This document shows positions 21,709 through 35,377 of a DNA stretch of 39,724 bases, piece after piece. The stretch lies in assembly GCA_964551925.1 (NCBI GenBank), contig CAZKFA010000004.1:22881-62604 (forward strand), in the 5' to 3' direction. Position numbers and translations under genes: made by a program. A model generated the notes under the pieces. That model saw only the letters and a program-made list of their open reading frames with translations, searched no databases and had not been told where the DNA came from. Each line of letters starts with the position of its first letter. Positions within the stretch are counted from its first letter, which is position 1. This stretch comes from an uncultured Gammaproteobacteria bacterium (GTDB lineage Bacteria > Cyanobacteriota > Vampirovibrionia > LMEP-6097).

Positions 21709-22995
21709 GTGAGTTACAAAATCTTCAATTGGCGCATTAATTTAACAGATCCAACTCTGGTTAACGCCATCATTGCTTTGCTTTTTATTAGCATTACTAC
21801 TCTATTAAGCGTTGCTGAACAAGGCTTAGCAATGAAACAATTTGCATTCGTACTAATATCCTTTTTATTAGTTTTTGTAAGCTTTCGAATGATTGATTTC
21901 AGCCTATACCAAATCTATGCTAATTGGATTTATATTTTTAATATCATCTTATTAATTGCTCTAAAATTTTTTGGGGCTACTGTATTGGGCTCACAGCGCT
22001 GGTTACAACTAGGTCCAATTAATATTCAACCAAGCGAAATAGCTAAAGTGTGTCTCATTGTTTATCTAGCAAGCTGGCTAATCCGCAATCCAATAAGAAA
22101 CTTCCTCGATATCATTAAAACATTACTGATAGTTGCCCCTCCAGCATTATTAGTATTGGTACAACCAGATCTAGGAACGACACTTGTCTATATCGCTATT
22201 ACAATCGGCATGCTATTTGCTGCTGGAGCTAAATTGATAGAGCTAGTAATTCTTGTCTCTCCATTAATTAGTGCCATTCTCTCTTTAATGGGCACTCAGT
22301 TAATGACTTACGAACACGAGAATCTTGTGTTTCACCTTACGGCTCCGGGGTTAGCCTTTTTGGTCTTAGTTATAGTCGCGGCTACCGTACATTACAAAGC
22401 ATGGAAACGCCCTTGGGTAAGCTTTGGATTCTTTTGGATTATTGCAGTCAATTTACTTTCTATAGTATTAAGATCTTTTGCTTGGGGCTTTCTTAAAGAT
22501 TATCAACAGAAACGCCTGACGATTTTTCTGGATCCTTACGTGGATCCTCTCGGTGCTGGCTATCACATTATTCAAAGTTTGTACGCGATTGGTAGTGGTG
22601 GCTTCTGGGGTAGAGGCTACCAGAATGGCGAGCTAACTCAAGGAAACTTTGTCCCTGAACAACATACGGACTTCATCTATTCAGCTATTGGTGAAGAATG
22701 GGGCTTCGTTGGTACAGCTTTAGTTTTATTTCTTTACGGACTAGTGCTGGTAAAAATAATTCAAATCGCAAAAAATACTGATGATAAGTTCAGTGAACTA
22801 GTTTCTATTGGGGTATTTGCCAAATTATTTTTTCATATCTTTGTTAATATTGGCATGACATTAAGCGTTATGCCAATCACCGGTGTACCTCTACCATTTA
22901 TGAGTTATGGTGGAAGTGCTCTACTAGTAGATATGTTCTTGATTTCATTAGTTATCAAAAGTGGTGTTGCTAATAGAATTAGCCGCAAATTATAA
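21709..22995 (+). CDS. rodA: Rod shape-determining SEDS protein RodA
   Basis: GSQRW, IQPSEIAK, QPDLGT, GAGYHIIQS, FVPEQHTDFI, PITGVPLPFMSYGGS. GTG 21709 preferred over the overlapping TTG 21649. Confidence 0.93.
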   Translation: MSYKIFNWRINLTDPTLVNAIIALLFISITTLLSVAEQGLAMKQFAFVLISFLLVFVSFRMIDFSLYQIYANWIYIFNIILLIALKFFGATVLGSQRWLQLGPINIQPSEIAKVCLIVYLASWLIRNPIRNFLDIIKTLLIVAPPALLVLVQPDLGTTLVYIAITIGMLFAAGAKLIELVILVSPLISAILSLMGTQLMTYEHENLVFHLTAPGLAFLVLVIVAATVHYKAWKRPWVSFGFFWIIAVNLLSIVLRSFAWGFLKDYQQKRLTIFLDPYVDPLGAGYHIIQSLYAIGSGGFWGRGYQNGELTQGNFVPEQHTDFIYSAIGEEWGFVGTALVLFLYGLVLVKIIQIAKNTDDKFSELVSIGVFAKLFFHIFVNIGMTLSVMPITGVPLPFMSYGGSALLVDMFLISLVIKSGVANRISRKL

Positions 22996-28085: not shown

Positions 28086-28625
28086 ATGTGCCCAGATTAC
28101 GTTGAAGAAGAATTAGAAATAATGAATGAGAATTCAAATGAACAAAGTCGAGAATCTTGTATGGCAACAGGAATAGACATTGAAGATCCTATTCGTATTT
28201 TAAATTTGAGCCCAGTAATTTCAGTCAATTTTGGTACGACTATAAGAGCTGTTCTTAAAATTTTGAATGATAATCATATTGGCTGTGTTACTGTCACGGA
28301 TAATAATGCAAATACTATTGGTATTTTTACTGAAAGAGATATTTTACGCAAAATAGCTGGCAAGGGTTTAGATTTTGATAAGGAAACAATAGATAATTAT
28401 ATGACACAGAATCCTGAAATGCTTTCAGAGAACGATCCTATAGCTTTTGCATTAAACAAGATGTCAGATGGTTCTTATCGTCATATTCCTATCACTCGCA
28501 ACCGCGAAGTTAGATTTATGTTATCAGTCAAAGATATCGTCGATCAAATTGCTTTTACCTACCGCAAGAAAATTCTTAACCTACCACCTGATCTCAAGCA
28601 ACAGATCAGTGAGTATGGTGGCTAA
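28086..28625 (+). CDS. CBS-domain pair protein
   Basis: IGIFTERDILRK, MTQNP, YRHIPI, LSVKDI. TGcTATAAT (28069-28077) lies 8 nt before the ATG. Confidence 0.9.
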   Translation: MCPDYVEEELEIMNENSNEQSRESCMATGIDIEDPIRILNLSPVISVNFGTTIRAVLKILNDNHIGCVTVTDNNANTIGIFTERDILRKIAGKGLDFDKETIDNYMTQNPEMLSENDPIAFALNKMSDGSYRHIPITRNREVRFMLSVKDIVDQIAFTYRKKILNLPPDLKQQISEYGG

Positions 28626-30498
28626 ACTTTAGATTAGAAATTCTCAAAGGATTCTCCTTTGATATCTCTTGCCAAGCATTAGATACTGTCGGAGACCAAG
28701 TTTGAGAAGCTATACTATCCGATTTCTTAAGATTGCAAGCAACACAAGAAGCATATAAATTACGCTCATCTTTATTAAGAGCAGGGAACTGCGAGGCTGG
28801 CAAATGATGATCATAGCTTGCCAAATGCGACTGTAATTTCTCTGGCTCATCAACATCTAAGAGTTTTTGCTTAACTAGGTCAGGATGCAACAAAGGTTTA
28901 GCGCAATAAACACAAGTATAATTGTCTCGCTGCCAAACCTTCTCTAATACTGATCTTGATGGCGAGGAGTTAGGACGAGATCTATTAACAACCTCTTTAG
29001 TCCCTAAAGACAACTTATCTAATTCTCTTACTAAAATTTCTTTGGCTAATTGATCTAGCTCAGATATATATTTATCTTTAAGCCAATTCTCGCCAATGTA
29101 GTCGCCTTTCATCACTACTGAGTAATCTTTATCGCTTGCCACTATGGTAAAAAAAGTCCTATTGCCTTGAGAAGCAATCTGTGACTTAATTTGAGCAGAA
29201 TTCAACAACGACACCTCTACTGATCCTAAGCGAGCTAAGAATTTTTTGGAAACCGGATCAGTCTCAGTAAAGCTAAAATCATCAACATATGATTTACGAA
29301 TAGGCTCATCTTCCAGACTAGCAAAATGAGAGCCTATCATACCCATAGCAGCTTCAGTCTTAATCTGGGTAATACTAGGCGAGTAAGGGCGTTCTTCTAG
29401 CTTAGTATAGTGATTAGCATTATCAAGCAACGCCTGATTAAAATCCGTTTGCTGAGGCTGATTCAGCCTAGCATAATCCTGAATACTAGGTTGGAAACTT
29501 TTATTACTATTATAAAAACTATCAGAGATGGCTTTAGAGACAGCGTCGCCAACTAAAGTATAGATTTGGTTGGTTTGTTGATACTTAACCTCTTGTTTAT
29601 TAGGATGTACATTGACATCCACCAAAGCAGGATCAAGATTAAGATTAATCACAGCAACAGGATACTTACCAGCAGGCAAGAGCTCTTTATAAACCGCTTC
29701 CAGAGCAGATCTCATGATATAACAACGCACTATGCGCTTATTAATAATAGTAAATATGCCACGTTTATCCGATCTGGTTAATTCTGGCAAACTAGTAAAG
29801 CCTATAACAGAGATACCATTGCGCTCTTGCTTAACAGGGATCAATTTCTTATAAATATCATCAGCAAAGATTTCAGCTATTGCTTTAGCCTGATCAGCAG
29901 AACCACTAGTAGCTAATGCAACTCGTCCATCAATCTTCAACTCAAAAGCAATCTCTGAGTTAGCTATAGCTAAGGATCTTACTGTATCAATAACTAAATT
30001 ACGTTCTTTGTTATTAGCTTTGAGAAATTTTAGGCGCGCAGGCGTATTAAAGAATAATTCATCAACTGTAATATTAGTGCCAGTCACAGCACCAGTTTGA
30101 GTTATATTCTCCTTACCACTTTCTATATAGATCTTATGAGCATGAATATCTTCCTTCCGCTTAGAAATACACTCGAGCTTAGAAACAGCAGCAATACTAG
30201 CCAGAGCCTCTCCACGAAAGCCATTAGTAATAAGGCTTTGAAGGTCTTCAATTGTTTGAATCTTGCTTGTAGCATGACGCTTAAAAGCTAAAGATAAATC
30301 TTCCCTGCTCATACCAACACCATTGTCAATGACTTGGATTTTGAGTAATTGCTTACTTAGTTCAATATAAATCTTAGTTGCTTGAGCATCAATACTATTC
30401 TCTACTAATTCTTTGATAATAGAATTAGGACCCTCAACTACCTCACCAGCAGCGATTTGGTTAGCTATATGTTCCGGCAATATGGATATCTTAGGCAC
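28606..30498 (-). CDS. mutL: MutL-family GHKL ATPase with a C-terminal HNH endonuclease domain
   Basis: NQIAAGEVV, KELVENSIDA, DNGVGM, HATSKI, GFRGEALASI, LFFNTPAR, VDVNVHPNK. C-terminal RDNYTCVYC...DHHLP...NLYASCVACNLKK. No DQHA motif. GTG start. Confidence 0.92.
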   Translation of the reverse strand: MPKISILPEHIANQIAAGEVVEGPNSIIKELVENSIDAQATKIYIELSKQLLKIQVIDNGVGMSREDLSLAFKRHATSKIQTIEDLQSLITNGFRGEALASIAAVSKLECISKRKEDIHAHKIYIESGKENITQTGAVTGTNITVDELFFNTPARLKFLKANNKERNLVIDTVRSLAIANSEIAFELKIDGRVALATSGSADQAKAIAEIFADDIYKKLIPVKQERNGISVIGFTSLPELTRSDKRGIFTIINKRIVRCYIMRSALEAVYKELLPAGKYPVAVINLNLDPALVDVNVHPNKQEVKYQQTNQIYTLVGDAVSKAISDSFYNSNKSFQPSIQDYARLNQPQQTDFNQALLDNANHYTKLEERPYSPSITQIKTEAAMGMIGSHFASLEDEPIRKSYVDDFSFTETDPVSKKFLARLGSVEVSLLNSAQIKSQIASQGNRTFFTIVASDKDYSVVMKGDYIGENWLKDKYISELDQLAKEILVRELDKLSLGTKEVVNRSRPNSSPSRSVLEKVWQRDNYTCVYCAKPLLHPDLVKQKLLDVDEPEKLQSHLASYDHHLPASQFPALNKDERNLYASCVACNLKKSDSIASQTWSPTVSNAWQEISKENPLRISNLKFSHHTH

Positions 30499-33170
30499 TA
30501 AATCTTTTGTGTTTCTTTTTGCTGGACGGCAAACTTAAACTCCTCGCTAAAGTCAATAGCAACGGTAGAGTTATCTTTTAGTGTACCAGCTAGAATAAGG
30601 TTTGCAAGTTGATTTTCGATTTTTTGCTGAATAACGCGCTTCACGGGTCTAGCTCCATAACTTGGATCAAAACCAATAATACCAAGCTGTTCAAGGGCAT
30701 AATCAGTAATTTCTAGATCAATCTTCCTGTCTTTCAGACGCTCACGCAAGCTTTGTAATTGAATCTCAACTATCTGCTTCATCTGACCCATTTGTAGTGG
30801 TGAGAATATAACGATGTCATCAATTCGATTCAAAAATTCTGGTCTAAAATGCTCCTTCATTAAAGCCATAATCTCATCTTTGATTCTTTCTTTAGCTGAT
30901 ACTCTCTCAAAGCCATCATCTTCTTCGGCAGAATCCTTGAAACCTTCTTGCAACTGTTGTTCAATAATATACTGACTGCCAAAATTTGACGTCATAATAA
31001 TTATGGTATTTTTGAAATCAACTTTCTTACCACGCCCATCAGTAAGGCGTCCATCATCAAGTATCTGCAAAAGAATATTACTGATGTCAGGATGCGCTTT
31101 CTCAAACTCATCAAGCAAAACTATTGAGTAAGGCTTGCGACGAACGGCTTCTGTTAACTGTCCACCCTCTTCATAACCAACATAACCTGGTGGAGCTCCA
31201 ATCAAACGCGCAATACTATGCTCTTCTTGATACTCAGACATATCTAAACGCACTATAGCGTTCTCATCATCAAACAAAGATTGAGCCAATGCTTTAGCTA
31301 ATTCTGTTTTACCAACACCAGTTGGACCCAAGAACATAAAAGAAGCAATAGGGCGATTAGGATTAGAAAGCCCAGCTCGAGAACGTTTGACCGCATCAGC
31401 AACCGCAGTTACAGCTTCATCTTGACCAACGACTCGCTTATGCAATTCATCAGCTAAGTTTAATAGTTTATCTGATTCTTCAGCTAATAATTTCGTTACT
31501 GGTATGCCAGTCCATTTAGCAACAATATCTGCAATTTCACTTTCATCAATTTCTTCTTTTAATAAATTCTTGCGCTTGCTCTTATTAGAAGACGCTTCTT
31601 CAACGGCTTTTAGCTGCTTTTCTAATTCAAGCAATGTGCCGAACTTAAGTTCAGCAGCTCGCTGTAAATCAGCCTTACGCTCAGCATTCTCAATTAAAGC
31701 TTTGGTCTCTTCAATTTTTTGCTTGATTTCCTTAACTCCAACAATAGAAGATTTCTCAGCCTGCCATTGGCTACGTAATTTATCAGCCTTACCAGTTAAA
31801 TCATTTAGCTCTTCTTCAATTTTCTCCAATCTATCTTTATTACTATCATTATCAGCTTCAGCCCTAATCGCTTCTCTTTCAATCTTAAGTTGCATAATTC
31901 TTCGATCGAGATGATCGAGCTCCTGAGGCGATGAATCGATCTCTACACGTAACTTTGCTGTCGCTTCGTCAATCAAATCAATAGCCTTATCAGGCAAGAA
32001 TCTCTCTGTAATATATCTATGACTAAGCTTGGCTGCTGCAACAATCGCATTATCCTTGATACGCACACCATGATGTGCCTCATACTTGCCTTTCAAACCA
32101 CGCAAAATAGAAATAGTCTCCTCTACACTCGGTTCATCAACCAAGACCATCTGGAATCTACGTTCAAGCGCTGAATCTTTCTCTATATATTTGCGATACT
32201 CATCAAGTGTAGTAGCACCAATACAATGCAATTCACCACGCGCCAAAGCTGGCTTAAGTAGGTTACTAGCATCCATAGAACCCTCTGTAGAACCAGCTCC
32301 TACGACCGTATGCAATTCATCAATAAACAAAACTATCTGACCTTCAGCGCTTTGTACTTCTTTAAGTACGGCTTTTAATCGTTCTTCAAATTCACCGCGG
32401 AATTTAGCTCCTGCAATTAAAGCACCCATGTCAAGCTCAATGACTTTTTTGTCGCGCAGACTTTCGGGAACATCTTTATTAATTATCCTCAAAGCCAATC
32501 CCTCAGCAATAGCCGTCTTACCAACACCAGGTGCGCCAACTAAAACCGGATTGTTCTTACGGCGACGCGAAAGTACTTGAATAACTCTACGAATTTCTTC
32601 ATCGCGTCCAATTACTGGATCTAATTTACCTTGGGCGGCAAGCTCAGTAAGATCCTTACCAAATTTATTGAGTGCATCTGTCGTTGATTCTGGATTATCA
32701 TTGGTTACACGCTGCCCCTTGCGCAGATCAGCAATAGCCTTCAAAACCTTATCCTTACTGAGTCCTAGATCTTTAAGAATTAAAGGCAATCTACCTTTAT
32801 CATCAAAACTGGCTAACAACAAATGCTCTAATGAAACATAATCATCACGCATCTTAGTAGCTTCTTTCAAAGCAGCTTCAAAAAAATCTTGAGTTGTAGC
32901 AGAGATAGCTAATTGATCTTGAGCAACCATAGTTGGGCTAGCTTTAGGTTTGGACTTAAGGTACTCGCGCACTTTATCGCTCAAGTCCAAAACATCAACG
33001 TTACTCTTCTCTAGAATTTGATAAAAAAGCGAGTTTTTTATATCATCTAACAAACAAACAGAAGCTAGTATATGCTCCGGTTCGATAACGGCATGATCTA
33101 AACTCTTTAAGAGTTCGCGACAATTCAAAATAGCCGCTTGGGTATTTTTAGTGAATTTACTGAAGTCCAT
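30498..33170 (-). CDS. clpB: ATP-dependent chaperone ClpB
   Basis: Two AAA+ modules ([16 protein letters not shown]), long middle coiled coil, [15 protein letters not shown]. Confidence 0.97.
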
Positions 33171-34981: not shown

Positions 34982-35377
34982 TCATTCAAAAATACTTTTT
35001 GAATTCTGCTGCAAATAATTTACAAGATCTTTTTTTGTTTTTGTCTTGGATAATAATCCAAGAATCATATCAGCAAGTTCAGTATCGTAACTTTCATTCA
35101 GTTCATAGCCATTGAGAAAAAGAAATGTTAGACCTGATAGCGCTGCGCTTCTTTTATTACCATCAACAAAAGGATGATTAACTGCAATAGAATGGATATA
35201 AGTAGCAGCCATTTCAAAAAAAGTCATTAAGTACTTTCCTTCAAAACTAGCTTTGGGAGCCTCAATGGCAGAGTCTAATAAATTCAAATCACGAATTTGA
35301 GAAAGATGAGAAGCAAATAAAACCTCTTGTTTATGGAGAAACAAGACATCTTCTAATGTAAGGAAATTTGGCTCCAT
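34982..35377 (-). CDS. doc: Doc-type (Fic family) toxin
   Basis: IRDLNLLDSA...P and the Doc-type motif HPFVDGNKR. Confidence 0.9.
   Translation of the reverse strand: MEPNFLTLEDVLFLHKQEVLFASHLSQIRDLNLLDSAIEAPKASFEGKYLMTFFEMAATYIHSIAVNHPFVDGNKRSAALSGLTFLFLNGYELNESYDTELADMILGLLSKTKTKKDLVNYLQQNSKSIFE

Follow-up and report, generated by a model that had tools for sequence, protein, structure and literature searches.

Incision in MutS/MutL mismatch repair is known in two designs. In one, MutH, a nuclease of the PD-(D/E)XK fold, is activated by a MutL that has no nuclease of its own; in the other, the cut is made by a metal site in the C-terminal domain of MutL itself (MutL_C), and such endonuclease-type MutLs are recognised by the motifs DQHA(X)2E(X)4E, ACR/SCK and CPHGRP. 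NucS/EndoMS constitutes a separate pathway. Outside mismatch repair, single HNH domains cut one strand of DNA in Cas9 or the Gme nickase. Conceptually, the nearest counterpart to the gene described here is MutS7 (octocoral mtMutS), in which an HNH domain is fused to the C-terminus of MutS and is proposed to nick the error-bearing strand, with MutL being dispensable (PMC3166940). Here, we describe a MutL-encoding gene, mutL-HNH, in a stretch of 39,724 nucleotides (positions 22,881 to 62,604 of contig CAZKFA010000004.1, assembly GCA_964551925.1; hereafter the window) from an uncultured bacterium deposited under the name Gammaproteobacteria and placed by GTDB in the Vampirovibrionia, a class of cyanobacterial relatives that do not photosynthesise.

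Homologues of the encoded protein were compared in three alignments, of 18 full-length sequences (A1), of 18 C-terminal regions including the most distant families (A2) and of 23 sequences, and in a survey of the class, a single sample of 121 genomes in families f1 to f11, of which f1, f2, f7 and f8 are the four families with the HNH-type protein. The gene and the parts of its product are as follows, with confidence in the models given as the predicted local distance difference test (pLDDT).

28606..30498, minus strand: the mutL-HNH gene, a single open frame of 630 codons plus stop, with a GTG start.
29494..30498, minus strand: residues 1-335, GHKL ATPase and transducer, with E30, N34, GFRGEAL and DVNVHP (Pfam, TIGR00585 and invariant columns).
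29254..29493, minus strand: residues 336-415, a variable linker whose length and sequence differ between genera in the alignments.
29008..29253, minus strand: residues 416-497, four antiparallel strands and one long helix, a predicted dimerisation module (AlphaFold models, pLDDT about 90-97).
28966..29007, minus strand: residues 498-511, a low-confidence hinge with a conserved S-R-P in which R508 is invariant (AlphaFold model, A2 alignment).
28609..28965, minus strand: residues 512-630, a Zn-ribbon HNH (His-Me finger) domain with a C-terminal beta-hairpin (AlphaFold model, Cap5/McrA matches, Foldseek, Pfam HNH in 17/18 members).
28717..28929, minus strand: residues 524-594 (R524-D594), the HNH core motif, with C529xxC532, D563-H564, N580 and C585xxC588-N589.

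From the sequence and the models built on it, we read this protein as the sole MutL of a Caenarcaniphilales-type member of the Vampirovibrionia, in which a MutL ATPase/transducer module is joined to a small dimerising domain and to a hinge-tethered HNH nickase that displaces MutL_C, the whole serving mismatch repair; we put the probability of this reading at about 0.66. The frame is uninterrupted and its N-terminus agrees with those of the aligned homologues. An initial annotation, made from the letters alone, had proposed the same 630-residue frame, which translation bears out, and its residue numbers (E30/N34, GFRGEAL, DVNVHP, C529/C532, D563/H564, N580, C585/C588/N589, and R524-D594 at 28929-28717) are all correct.

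By sequence, the protein is a true MutL in its ATPase and transducer module, because it reaches 410 bits with the NCBIfam equivalog TIGR00585 ('mutl'), whose cut-off is 180, and because its ATPase residues are invariant. Pfam places HATPase_c_3 at residues 25-126 (E 4e-15) and DNA_mis_repair (PF01119) at residues 207-324 (E 1.1e-33, full profile length matched), in keeping with the canonical MutL N-terminus of the initial annotation. E30, N34 and GFRGEAL (93-99) are invariant in the alignment of 18 full-length homologues, and DVNVHP lies at 294-299. The TIGR00585 match covers residues 4-363 only, and the matches to the full-length MutL models of NCBIfam end at about position 365-369 with scores under the cut-offs of those models. 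In the variable linker that follows, most genera of f1 share a strongly conserved S-F-Q-P-S-(L/I) (residues 340-345; 29464-29481), which f7, f8 and some of the f1 genera lack; judged by its sequence, it could be a partner-binding peptide.

Beyond the linker, neither the domain nor the motifs of a canonical MutL C-terminus were found. MutL_C (PF08676) gave no Pfam match in the 630-residue protein, nor any even at E<=10 when the C-terminal 264 residues were scanned alone, and DQHA(X)2E(X)4E, ACR/SCK and C(P/N)HGRP are absent from the window translation and from 23/23 HNH-type sequences. MutLs of sister families in the same class carry DQHIAxER, ACK and CPHGR. When the HNH-type C-terminal alignment A2 was set against canonical C-terminal domains from within the class (alignment A3, only four sequences), profile-profile comparison (hhalign) returned one match, with a probability of 0.65%; it pairs W-x-RDNYTCVYC-KPL with W...YTCPHGRPI and was treated as a chance match. 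Judged by sequence, the whole of MutL_C, its dimerisation part as well as the DQHA/CPHGRP metal site, is displaced by a small four-strand, one-helix domain plus the HNH domain. The initial annotation had an HNH nuclease in place of the endonuclease domain; the replacement itself stands, but it takes in more than the nuclease site, the dimerisation part having been replaced by the small domain too. The sequences concerned have been deposited as 'DNA mismatch repair endonuclease MutL' yet are without the domain which that name implies, and their annotation is corrected here.

The assignment of residues 512-630 to the HNH fold is firm, because the structural matches, middling as they are, are consistent with one another and the sequence evidence agrees with them. 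C529, C532, D563, H564, N580, C585, C588 and N589 are invariant in A1 (18/18), in A2 (18/18) and in the 23-sequence alignment (23/23), across all four families, at C-terminal identities to the window protein that fall to 28% among the aligned sequences. In the window protein itself, Pfam HNH (PF01844) is matched at residues 561-594 with E 0.021 and 15.4 bits; C-terminal pieces taken alone reach 18.4-19.1 bits, and the last 264 residues match only HNH in Pfam (E 0.0025). Among the relatives, 17/18 members match Pfam HNH at E<=0.1 (best 7.7e-5), 9/18 match HNH_5 and one (P0039) has a precomputed PF01844 match. A search of 1.84 billion representative proteins with the A2 profile yielded 1811 matches at E<=0.001; short stand-alone proteins begin at 6.7e-14 among these, and 10/10 of those scanned are Pfam HNH or HNH_5 proteins. 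Against PDB sequences, the same profile reached the HNH endonuclease of phage GVE2 (E 0.0044) and a Cas9 HNH domain (4ogc; E 0.0054), with D-H, N and C-x-x-C-N on corresponding positions in the HMMER alignments to both.

An AlphaFold2 model of residues 412-630 built from A2 (mean pLDDT 87.8) falls into three parts: a small domain with its core at residues 422-497, the hinge, where pLDDT drops below 50 at residues 499-506 (model residues 88-95), and an alpha/beta domain at residues 515-625 (model residues 104-214). The best matches to the last of these in the VIA structural comparison are CBASS Cap5 (7rwk_B) and McrA (6ghc_B), both with Z 7.0 and 3.0 A over 83 residues, followed lower down by GVE2 HNH, IscB and Cas9 HNH, the Gme HNH nickase and ZRANB3 HNH. 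By Foldseek, the highest-ranked matches are without exception HNH domains (Cas9 HNH, Cap5, Gme HNH, retron PtuB and McrA), with E values of 0.01-0.2. The two CxxC pairs are predicted to form a structural zinc site, which would place the domain in the Zn-ribbon HNH subgroup, and from the sequence D563-H564 would provide the general base, N580 a structural residue and N589 a metal ligand; the full catalytic set is kept. The claim of the initial annotation that the HNH motif is complete is thus upheld by its invariance in 23/23 sequences, by the profile links to genuine HNH proteins and by the match of the model to HNH folds.

This conservation bears on whether the domain cuts at all. The HNH-like domain could instead be a non-catalytic, Zn-stabilised module that binds DNA or protein, with repair proceeding from pre-existing breaks or by another nuclease, as E. 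coli MutL works with MutH. Inactive HNH-like folds are known in GHL ATPases (Type IV-A in the Tiamat preprint), and the weak Pfam HNH scores, like the lack of any strand-discrimination motif seen in the 23-sequence alignment, would sit well with such a module. However, a purely structural module is expected to need only its four cysteines, whereas here every residue of the catalytic set is the same in 23/23 sequences over four families, in contrast to the inactive forms; moreover, neither MutH nor NucS was found in the window's genome. We regard a non-catalytic domain as decidedly unlikely, and prefer the reading as an active nickase.

Two further features of the HNH domain were noted. A conserved P-L-x-I-x-G-x-x-F at residues 617-630 (28609-28650) occurs in all four families and, in the model, folds into a beta-hairpin that rests against the HNH domain (pLDDT about 95). 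In addition, many homologues of f2, f7, f8 and some of f1 (L022, L015-L021, L023 and L024) carry an extra insert of ~17-25 residues ('F..Y.N...') between the first CxxC and D-H, which the window protein and its nearest relatives do not have.

Homodimer prediction for residues 412-630 gave an ipSAE interface score of 0.75 (0.74-0.76 in three runs) against 0.01 for the best control, with a contact agreement between runs of at least 49% and a partner pLDDT of at least 73; in calibration, the mark applied to this score was reached by 20/30 proteins solved as pairs and by 1/23 solved as single chains. The predicted interface is made by the first strand (416-434), running antiparallel across the two-fold axis, and by the helix at 472-492. 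Because this interface lies in its strand and helix, the small domain is likely a dimerisation module, from which, in the model, the two HNH domains hang.

The origin of the small domain is less clear-cut. Folded alone, residues 412-505 reach a pLDDT of 88.4, and Foldseek found no match for them in the PDB at E<=0.001. The matches from VIA were all of a generic alpha/beta kind (LptE-like, roadblock/longin, GAF and beta-lactamase parts), none above Z 6.0, and a MutL C-terminal domain was not among the best 50 VIA matches or the Foldseek rows. Language-model features of the same residues lie nearest to the Mlh1_C and MutL_C clusters, at 0.83-0.84, under the 0.9 level required for more than a lead. 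MutL_C begins with strand-DQHAxxE-helix, and by eye the strand-strand-strand-helix order and G-D-x-I-G-E-N-W resemble this beginning; together with the nearness in features, that likeness would fit a very diverged remnant of the MutL_C dimerisation subdomain, the rest having been replaced by HNH. Such a remnant would concern the origin of the domain only and is compatible with the dimeric HNH nickase that we favour; we consider it unlikely, given the hhalign probability of 0.65% against canonical C-terminal domains and the generic two-layer alpha/beta folds (Z <=6.0) that make up the best structural matches.

In the class survey, in which HNH-type C-termini were called by the A2 profile at E<=1e-10, the two kinds of MutL C-terminus divide the families between them. 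The HNH type is found in 44/45 genomes of the four families (f1 23/23, f2 1/1, f7 9/9, f8 11/12) as well as in the window's own genome, and in 0/75 elsewhere (f3 0/2, f4 0/23, f5 0/14, f6 0/24, f9 0/2, f10 0/9, f11 0/1). MutL_C is found in 0/45 genomes of the four families (f1 0/23, f2 0/1, f7 0/9, f8 0/12) and in 67/75 of the others (f3 1/2, f4 16/23, f5 14/14, f6 24/24, f9 2/2, f10 9/9, f11 1/1). No genome of the sample holds both, and the HNH form replaces canonical MutL rather than standing beside it. Eight genomes (7/23 of f4 and 1/2 of f3) have neither type, perhaps because they are incomplete, because their C-terminal domain has diverged or because MutL has been lost; all eight have MutS_I.

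In a 301-genome sample of the phylum, 0/297 genomes outside the class have the HNH-type C-terminus (E<=1e-10). Among 185,579 species representatives, 49 loci were matched, 33 with the full C-terminus and a further 16, from other phyla, in the HNH part only (E 7e-7 to 1e-4). By title, 26 of the 33 are Melainabacteria, Caenarcanales, Vampirovibrionia or Cyanobacteria-type, four are (Gamma)proteobacteria and three are simply 'bacterium'. In the library of 1.84 billion proteins, only 22 clusters were matched at E<=1e-30, after which there is a gap before the stand-alone HNH proteins begin at 6.7e-14; 14 of these clusters are full length (591-727 residues) and eight, of 166-407 residues, are presumably fragments. 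The source name of one homologue and the record titles assign the family to the Caenarcaniphilales / Melainabacteria / Vampirovibrionia. Four records of metagenome-assembled genomes with this C-terminus (L040, L044, L051 and L056) are titled 'uncultured Gammaproteobacteria bacterium' or 'Proteobacteria bacterium', and another (L072) 'Synechococcales cyanobacterium'; the submitters' taxonomic labels on these records may be wrong.

Since the same C-terminus occurs across four families of the 121-genome sample, the fusion is neither an artefact nor an oddity of one strain. The window's genome, in 58 contigs, is fragmented enough that a chimeric assembly or faulty annotation joining a MutL N-terminus to an HNH gene might be suspected. 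Such a join is scarcely conceivable, however, when the architecture recurs in 44/45 genomes, 33 species-level records and 14 full-length clusters, with synteny kept on both sides; the chimera that the initial annotation had named as a possible refutation is thereby ruled out, and the single natural protein is retained in what follows.

A quick IQ-TREE run on the N-terminal domains covered 36 rows over 343 columns, with 23 rows of the HNH type and 13 canonical ones; L001 and L003, copies of the window's gene, were excluded, as was every locus retrieved afterwards. The resulting tree needs one change between the two types. Its midpoint root falls inside the HNH-type rows and it has no outgroup, and the direction and number of displacement events are therefore not settled.

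MutL-HNH co-occurs with MutS1. The window's genome, 1.6 Mb in size and 89.6% complete, was searched for mutS, mutH, dam and nucS and for a second mutL. It has one DNA_mis_repair match, which is the mutL-HNH gene itself, and no match to MutL_C, so that no second mutL was found. Those checks suggested in the initial annotation that were made here all turned out as it had expected, and nothing that it listed as refuting was encountered. It has one MutS1, with domains I-V in one 883-residue frame; no HNH was found on this MutS within its last 730 residues, the first 153 being covered by the MutS_I search only. MutH, NucS and a Dam-type methylase gave no match in this 89.6% of the genome. Across the class, MutS_I is present in 120/121 genomes, and MutS1 in 44/45 genomes of the HNH-type families (f1 23/23, f2 1/1, f7 8/9, f8 12/12) in addition to the window's own.

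Hemimethylation is an unlikely strand signal in this genome, given that neither MutH nor a Dam-type methylase was found in it. The canonical route of strand discrimination is likewise without a visible counterpart, because inspection of the 23-sequence alignment by eye revealed no clamp-binding motif common to f1, f2, f7 and f8. Two candidates for such a motif were set aside: SFQPS(L/I), which is conserved only in part of f1, and P-L-x-I-x-G-x-x-F, which is conserved but is modelled as the beta-hairpin packed on the HNH domain.

We propose the following course of repair. MutS1 would recognise the mismatch and recruit MutL-HNH, whose ATP-driven N-terminal domain closure would license the tethered HNH domains. 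Each HNH domain would then cut one strand, leaving a nick in the strand to be repaired, which is the job of the MutL_C nuclease or of MutH elsewhere, and this nick would start excision. The sequences show the architecture, its conservation, its mutual exclusion with MutL_C and the retention of MutS1, and the models add predictions of fold and dimer; we infer that the protein is a nuclease, that MutS and ATP control it and that it nicks one strand instead of cutting both. On a broader scale, we lean towards seeing in the four-family clade, as the initial annotation did for this protein, a third solution to incision in MutS/MutL repair, here regarded as independently evolved, in which an ATP-gated clamp would drive an HNH nickase joined to a new minimal dimerisation domain, possibly with strand discrimination by a route other than the canonical contact of MutL_C with the clamp.

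Several points weigh against this proposal. Genes that were not seen in the window's genome count, at 89.6% completeness, as not found rather than as absent, and the lack of a visible clamp-binding motif common to the four families leaves canonical strand discrimination without a counterpart that can be seen. The Pfam HNH scores of the window protein, 15.4-19.1 bits, stay under the gathering cut-off of 21.4 bits. The structural likeness to HNH domains is middling, with Z 7.0 and no Foldseek match at E<=0.001, and a VIA Z below 8 can reflect a common arrangement. The homodimer is predicted only, its score being a model's confidence. Finally, the branch between HNH-type and canonical N-terminal domains has moderate support (84 in the Shimodaira-Hasegawa-like approximate likelihood ratio test, SH-aLRT), and in a tree that has no outgroup a single origin is not proven.

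The protein could also be an active HNH nuclease that works outside classical mismatch repair, as an ATP-gated enzyme of anti-recombination, defence or the processing of other lesions, in the manner of MORC, paraMORC and Tiamat-like proteins. Like the present protein, these combine a GHKL ATPase with a nuclease that is sometimes an HNH, and such combinations are known in defence systems (PMC2292703; Tiamat preprint). Furthermore, the PADLOC entries nearest to the HNH region are HNH proteins from candidate defence systems (PDC-M01B, E 4e-8, and PtuB). However, this resemblance stops at the HNH domain: nothing in PADLOC reaches residues 1-513 at E<=0.01, and the best 25 of 26 families all lie within residues 514-627, while the N-terminal module scores as a MutL equivalog with TIGR00585. 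MORC, paraMORC and Tiamat-like proteins are separate GHKL families found in defence islands, whereas MutL-HNH is single copy and inherited with the core genome; Tiamat-like HNH folds are, moreover, typically without catalytic residues, according to the preprint. A role in defence is also at odds with the finding of no other MutL in the genome, with a distribution over 121 genomes that complements that of canonical MutL, with the retention of MutS1 in 44/45 genomes of the four families and in the window's own, and with a conserved housekeeping neighbourhood that has no methylase, helicase or mobile genes beside the gene. We therefore hold a function outside mismatch repair to be quite unlikely, and mismatch repair remains the role that we assign to MutL-HNH.

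Set beside the known systems, the protein shares with canonical endonuclease-type MutLs, such as those of B. subtilis and Thermus, the GHKL ATPase and transducer, a long linker, the overall length and the presence of MutS1 without a MutH being found, as well as, by prediction, a C-terminal region that combines dimerisation with a metal-dependent nuclease site. It differs from them in having no MutL_C or MutL_C motifs, an HNH/His-Me finger fold, a dimerisation module without detectable relation to MutL_C and no recognised clamp motif. By analogy, it resembles the E. coli-type pair of MutL and MutH in that the nick would be made by a fold foreign to MutL_C and, as proposed here, gated by the MutL ATPase; unlike in that pair, the nuclease is covalently fused and is an HNH. 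With McrA, Cap5, the HNH domains of Cas9 and IscB, the Gme HNH nickase and phage GVE2 HNH it has in common the beta-beta-alpha-metal core, D-H...N...N and two CxxC pairs, but those Zn-ribbon HNH nucleases have no MutL ATPase attached and their sequence identity to it is only 16-24%. MutS7 likewise fuses a core repair ATPase to a C-terminal HNH, whereas here the HNH is on MutL and a normal five-domain MutS1 is kept; the two fusions look like independent inventions. No description of a MutL-HNH fusion was found in the open full-text literature, the search having been confined to that literature and having left subscription journals and domain-architecture databases outside it.

If this reading is true, the MutL ATPase and linker would be a general licensing device, able to drive unrelated nucleases, and MutL-HNH would parallel the MutS-HNH fusion of MutS7. 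The catalytic and dimerising domain of a core-repair enzyme would have been displaced non-orthologously across a clade, which would surprise a specialist. With a dimerisation domain of ~80 residues and an HNH domain of ~115 residues, the protein would moreover offer a compact, separable system for studying closure-to-nuclease signalling and strand choice.

Two genes adjoin mutL-HNH in the window and are given for context only.

30498..33170, minus strand: clpB, directly upstream of mutL (Pfam AAA_2, ClpB_D2-small, Clp_N).
28086..28625, plus strand: a CBS-domain gene, convergent with mutL and overlapping its 3' end by 20 bases.

The GTG start of mutL at 30498 overlaps the clpB stop codon by one base, and this sharing of a base between stop and start suggests, from the sequence, that the two genes are translationally coupled. 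By Pfam, the neighbours in the window (ClpB, the CBS protein, a thiolase and IspG) are housekeeping proteins, and no methylase, helicase or mobile gene was seen among the neighbours examined. The order clpB-mutL-CBS-thiolase recurs in related loci, with clpB in 9/22, CBS in 10/22 and thiolase in 10/22, counts that are held down by short flanks; clpB-mutL adjacency was seen in f1, f2 and f8 loci. The setting among core genes behind clpB, pointed out in the initial annotation, is accordingly a conserved one. Farther out, among housekeeping genes, lies a gene for a Fic/DOC-family protein of 131 residues (34982-35377, minus strand; E 1.5e-14), which adjoins a DJ-1/PfpI-like gene.

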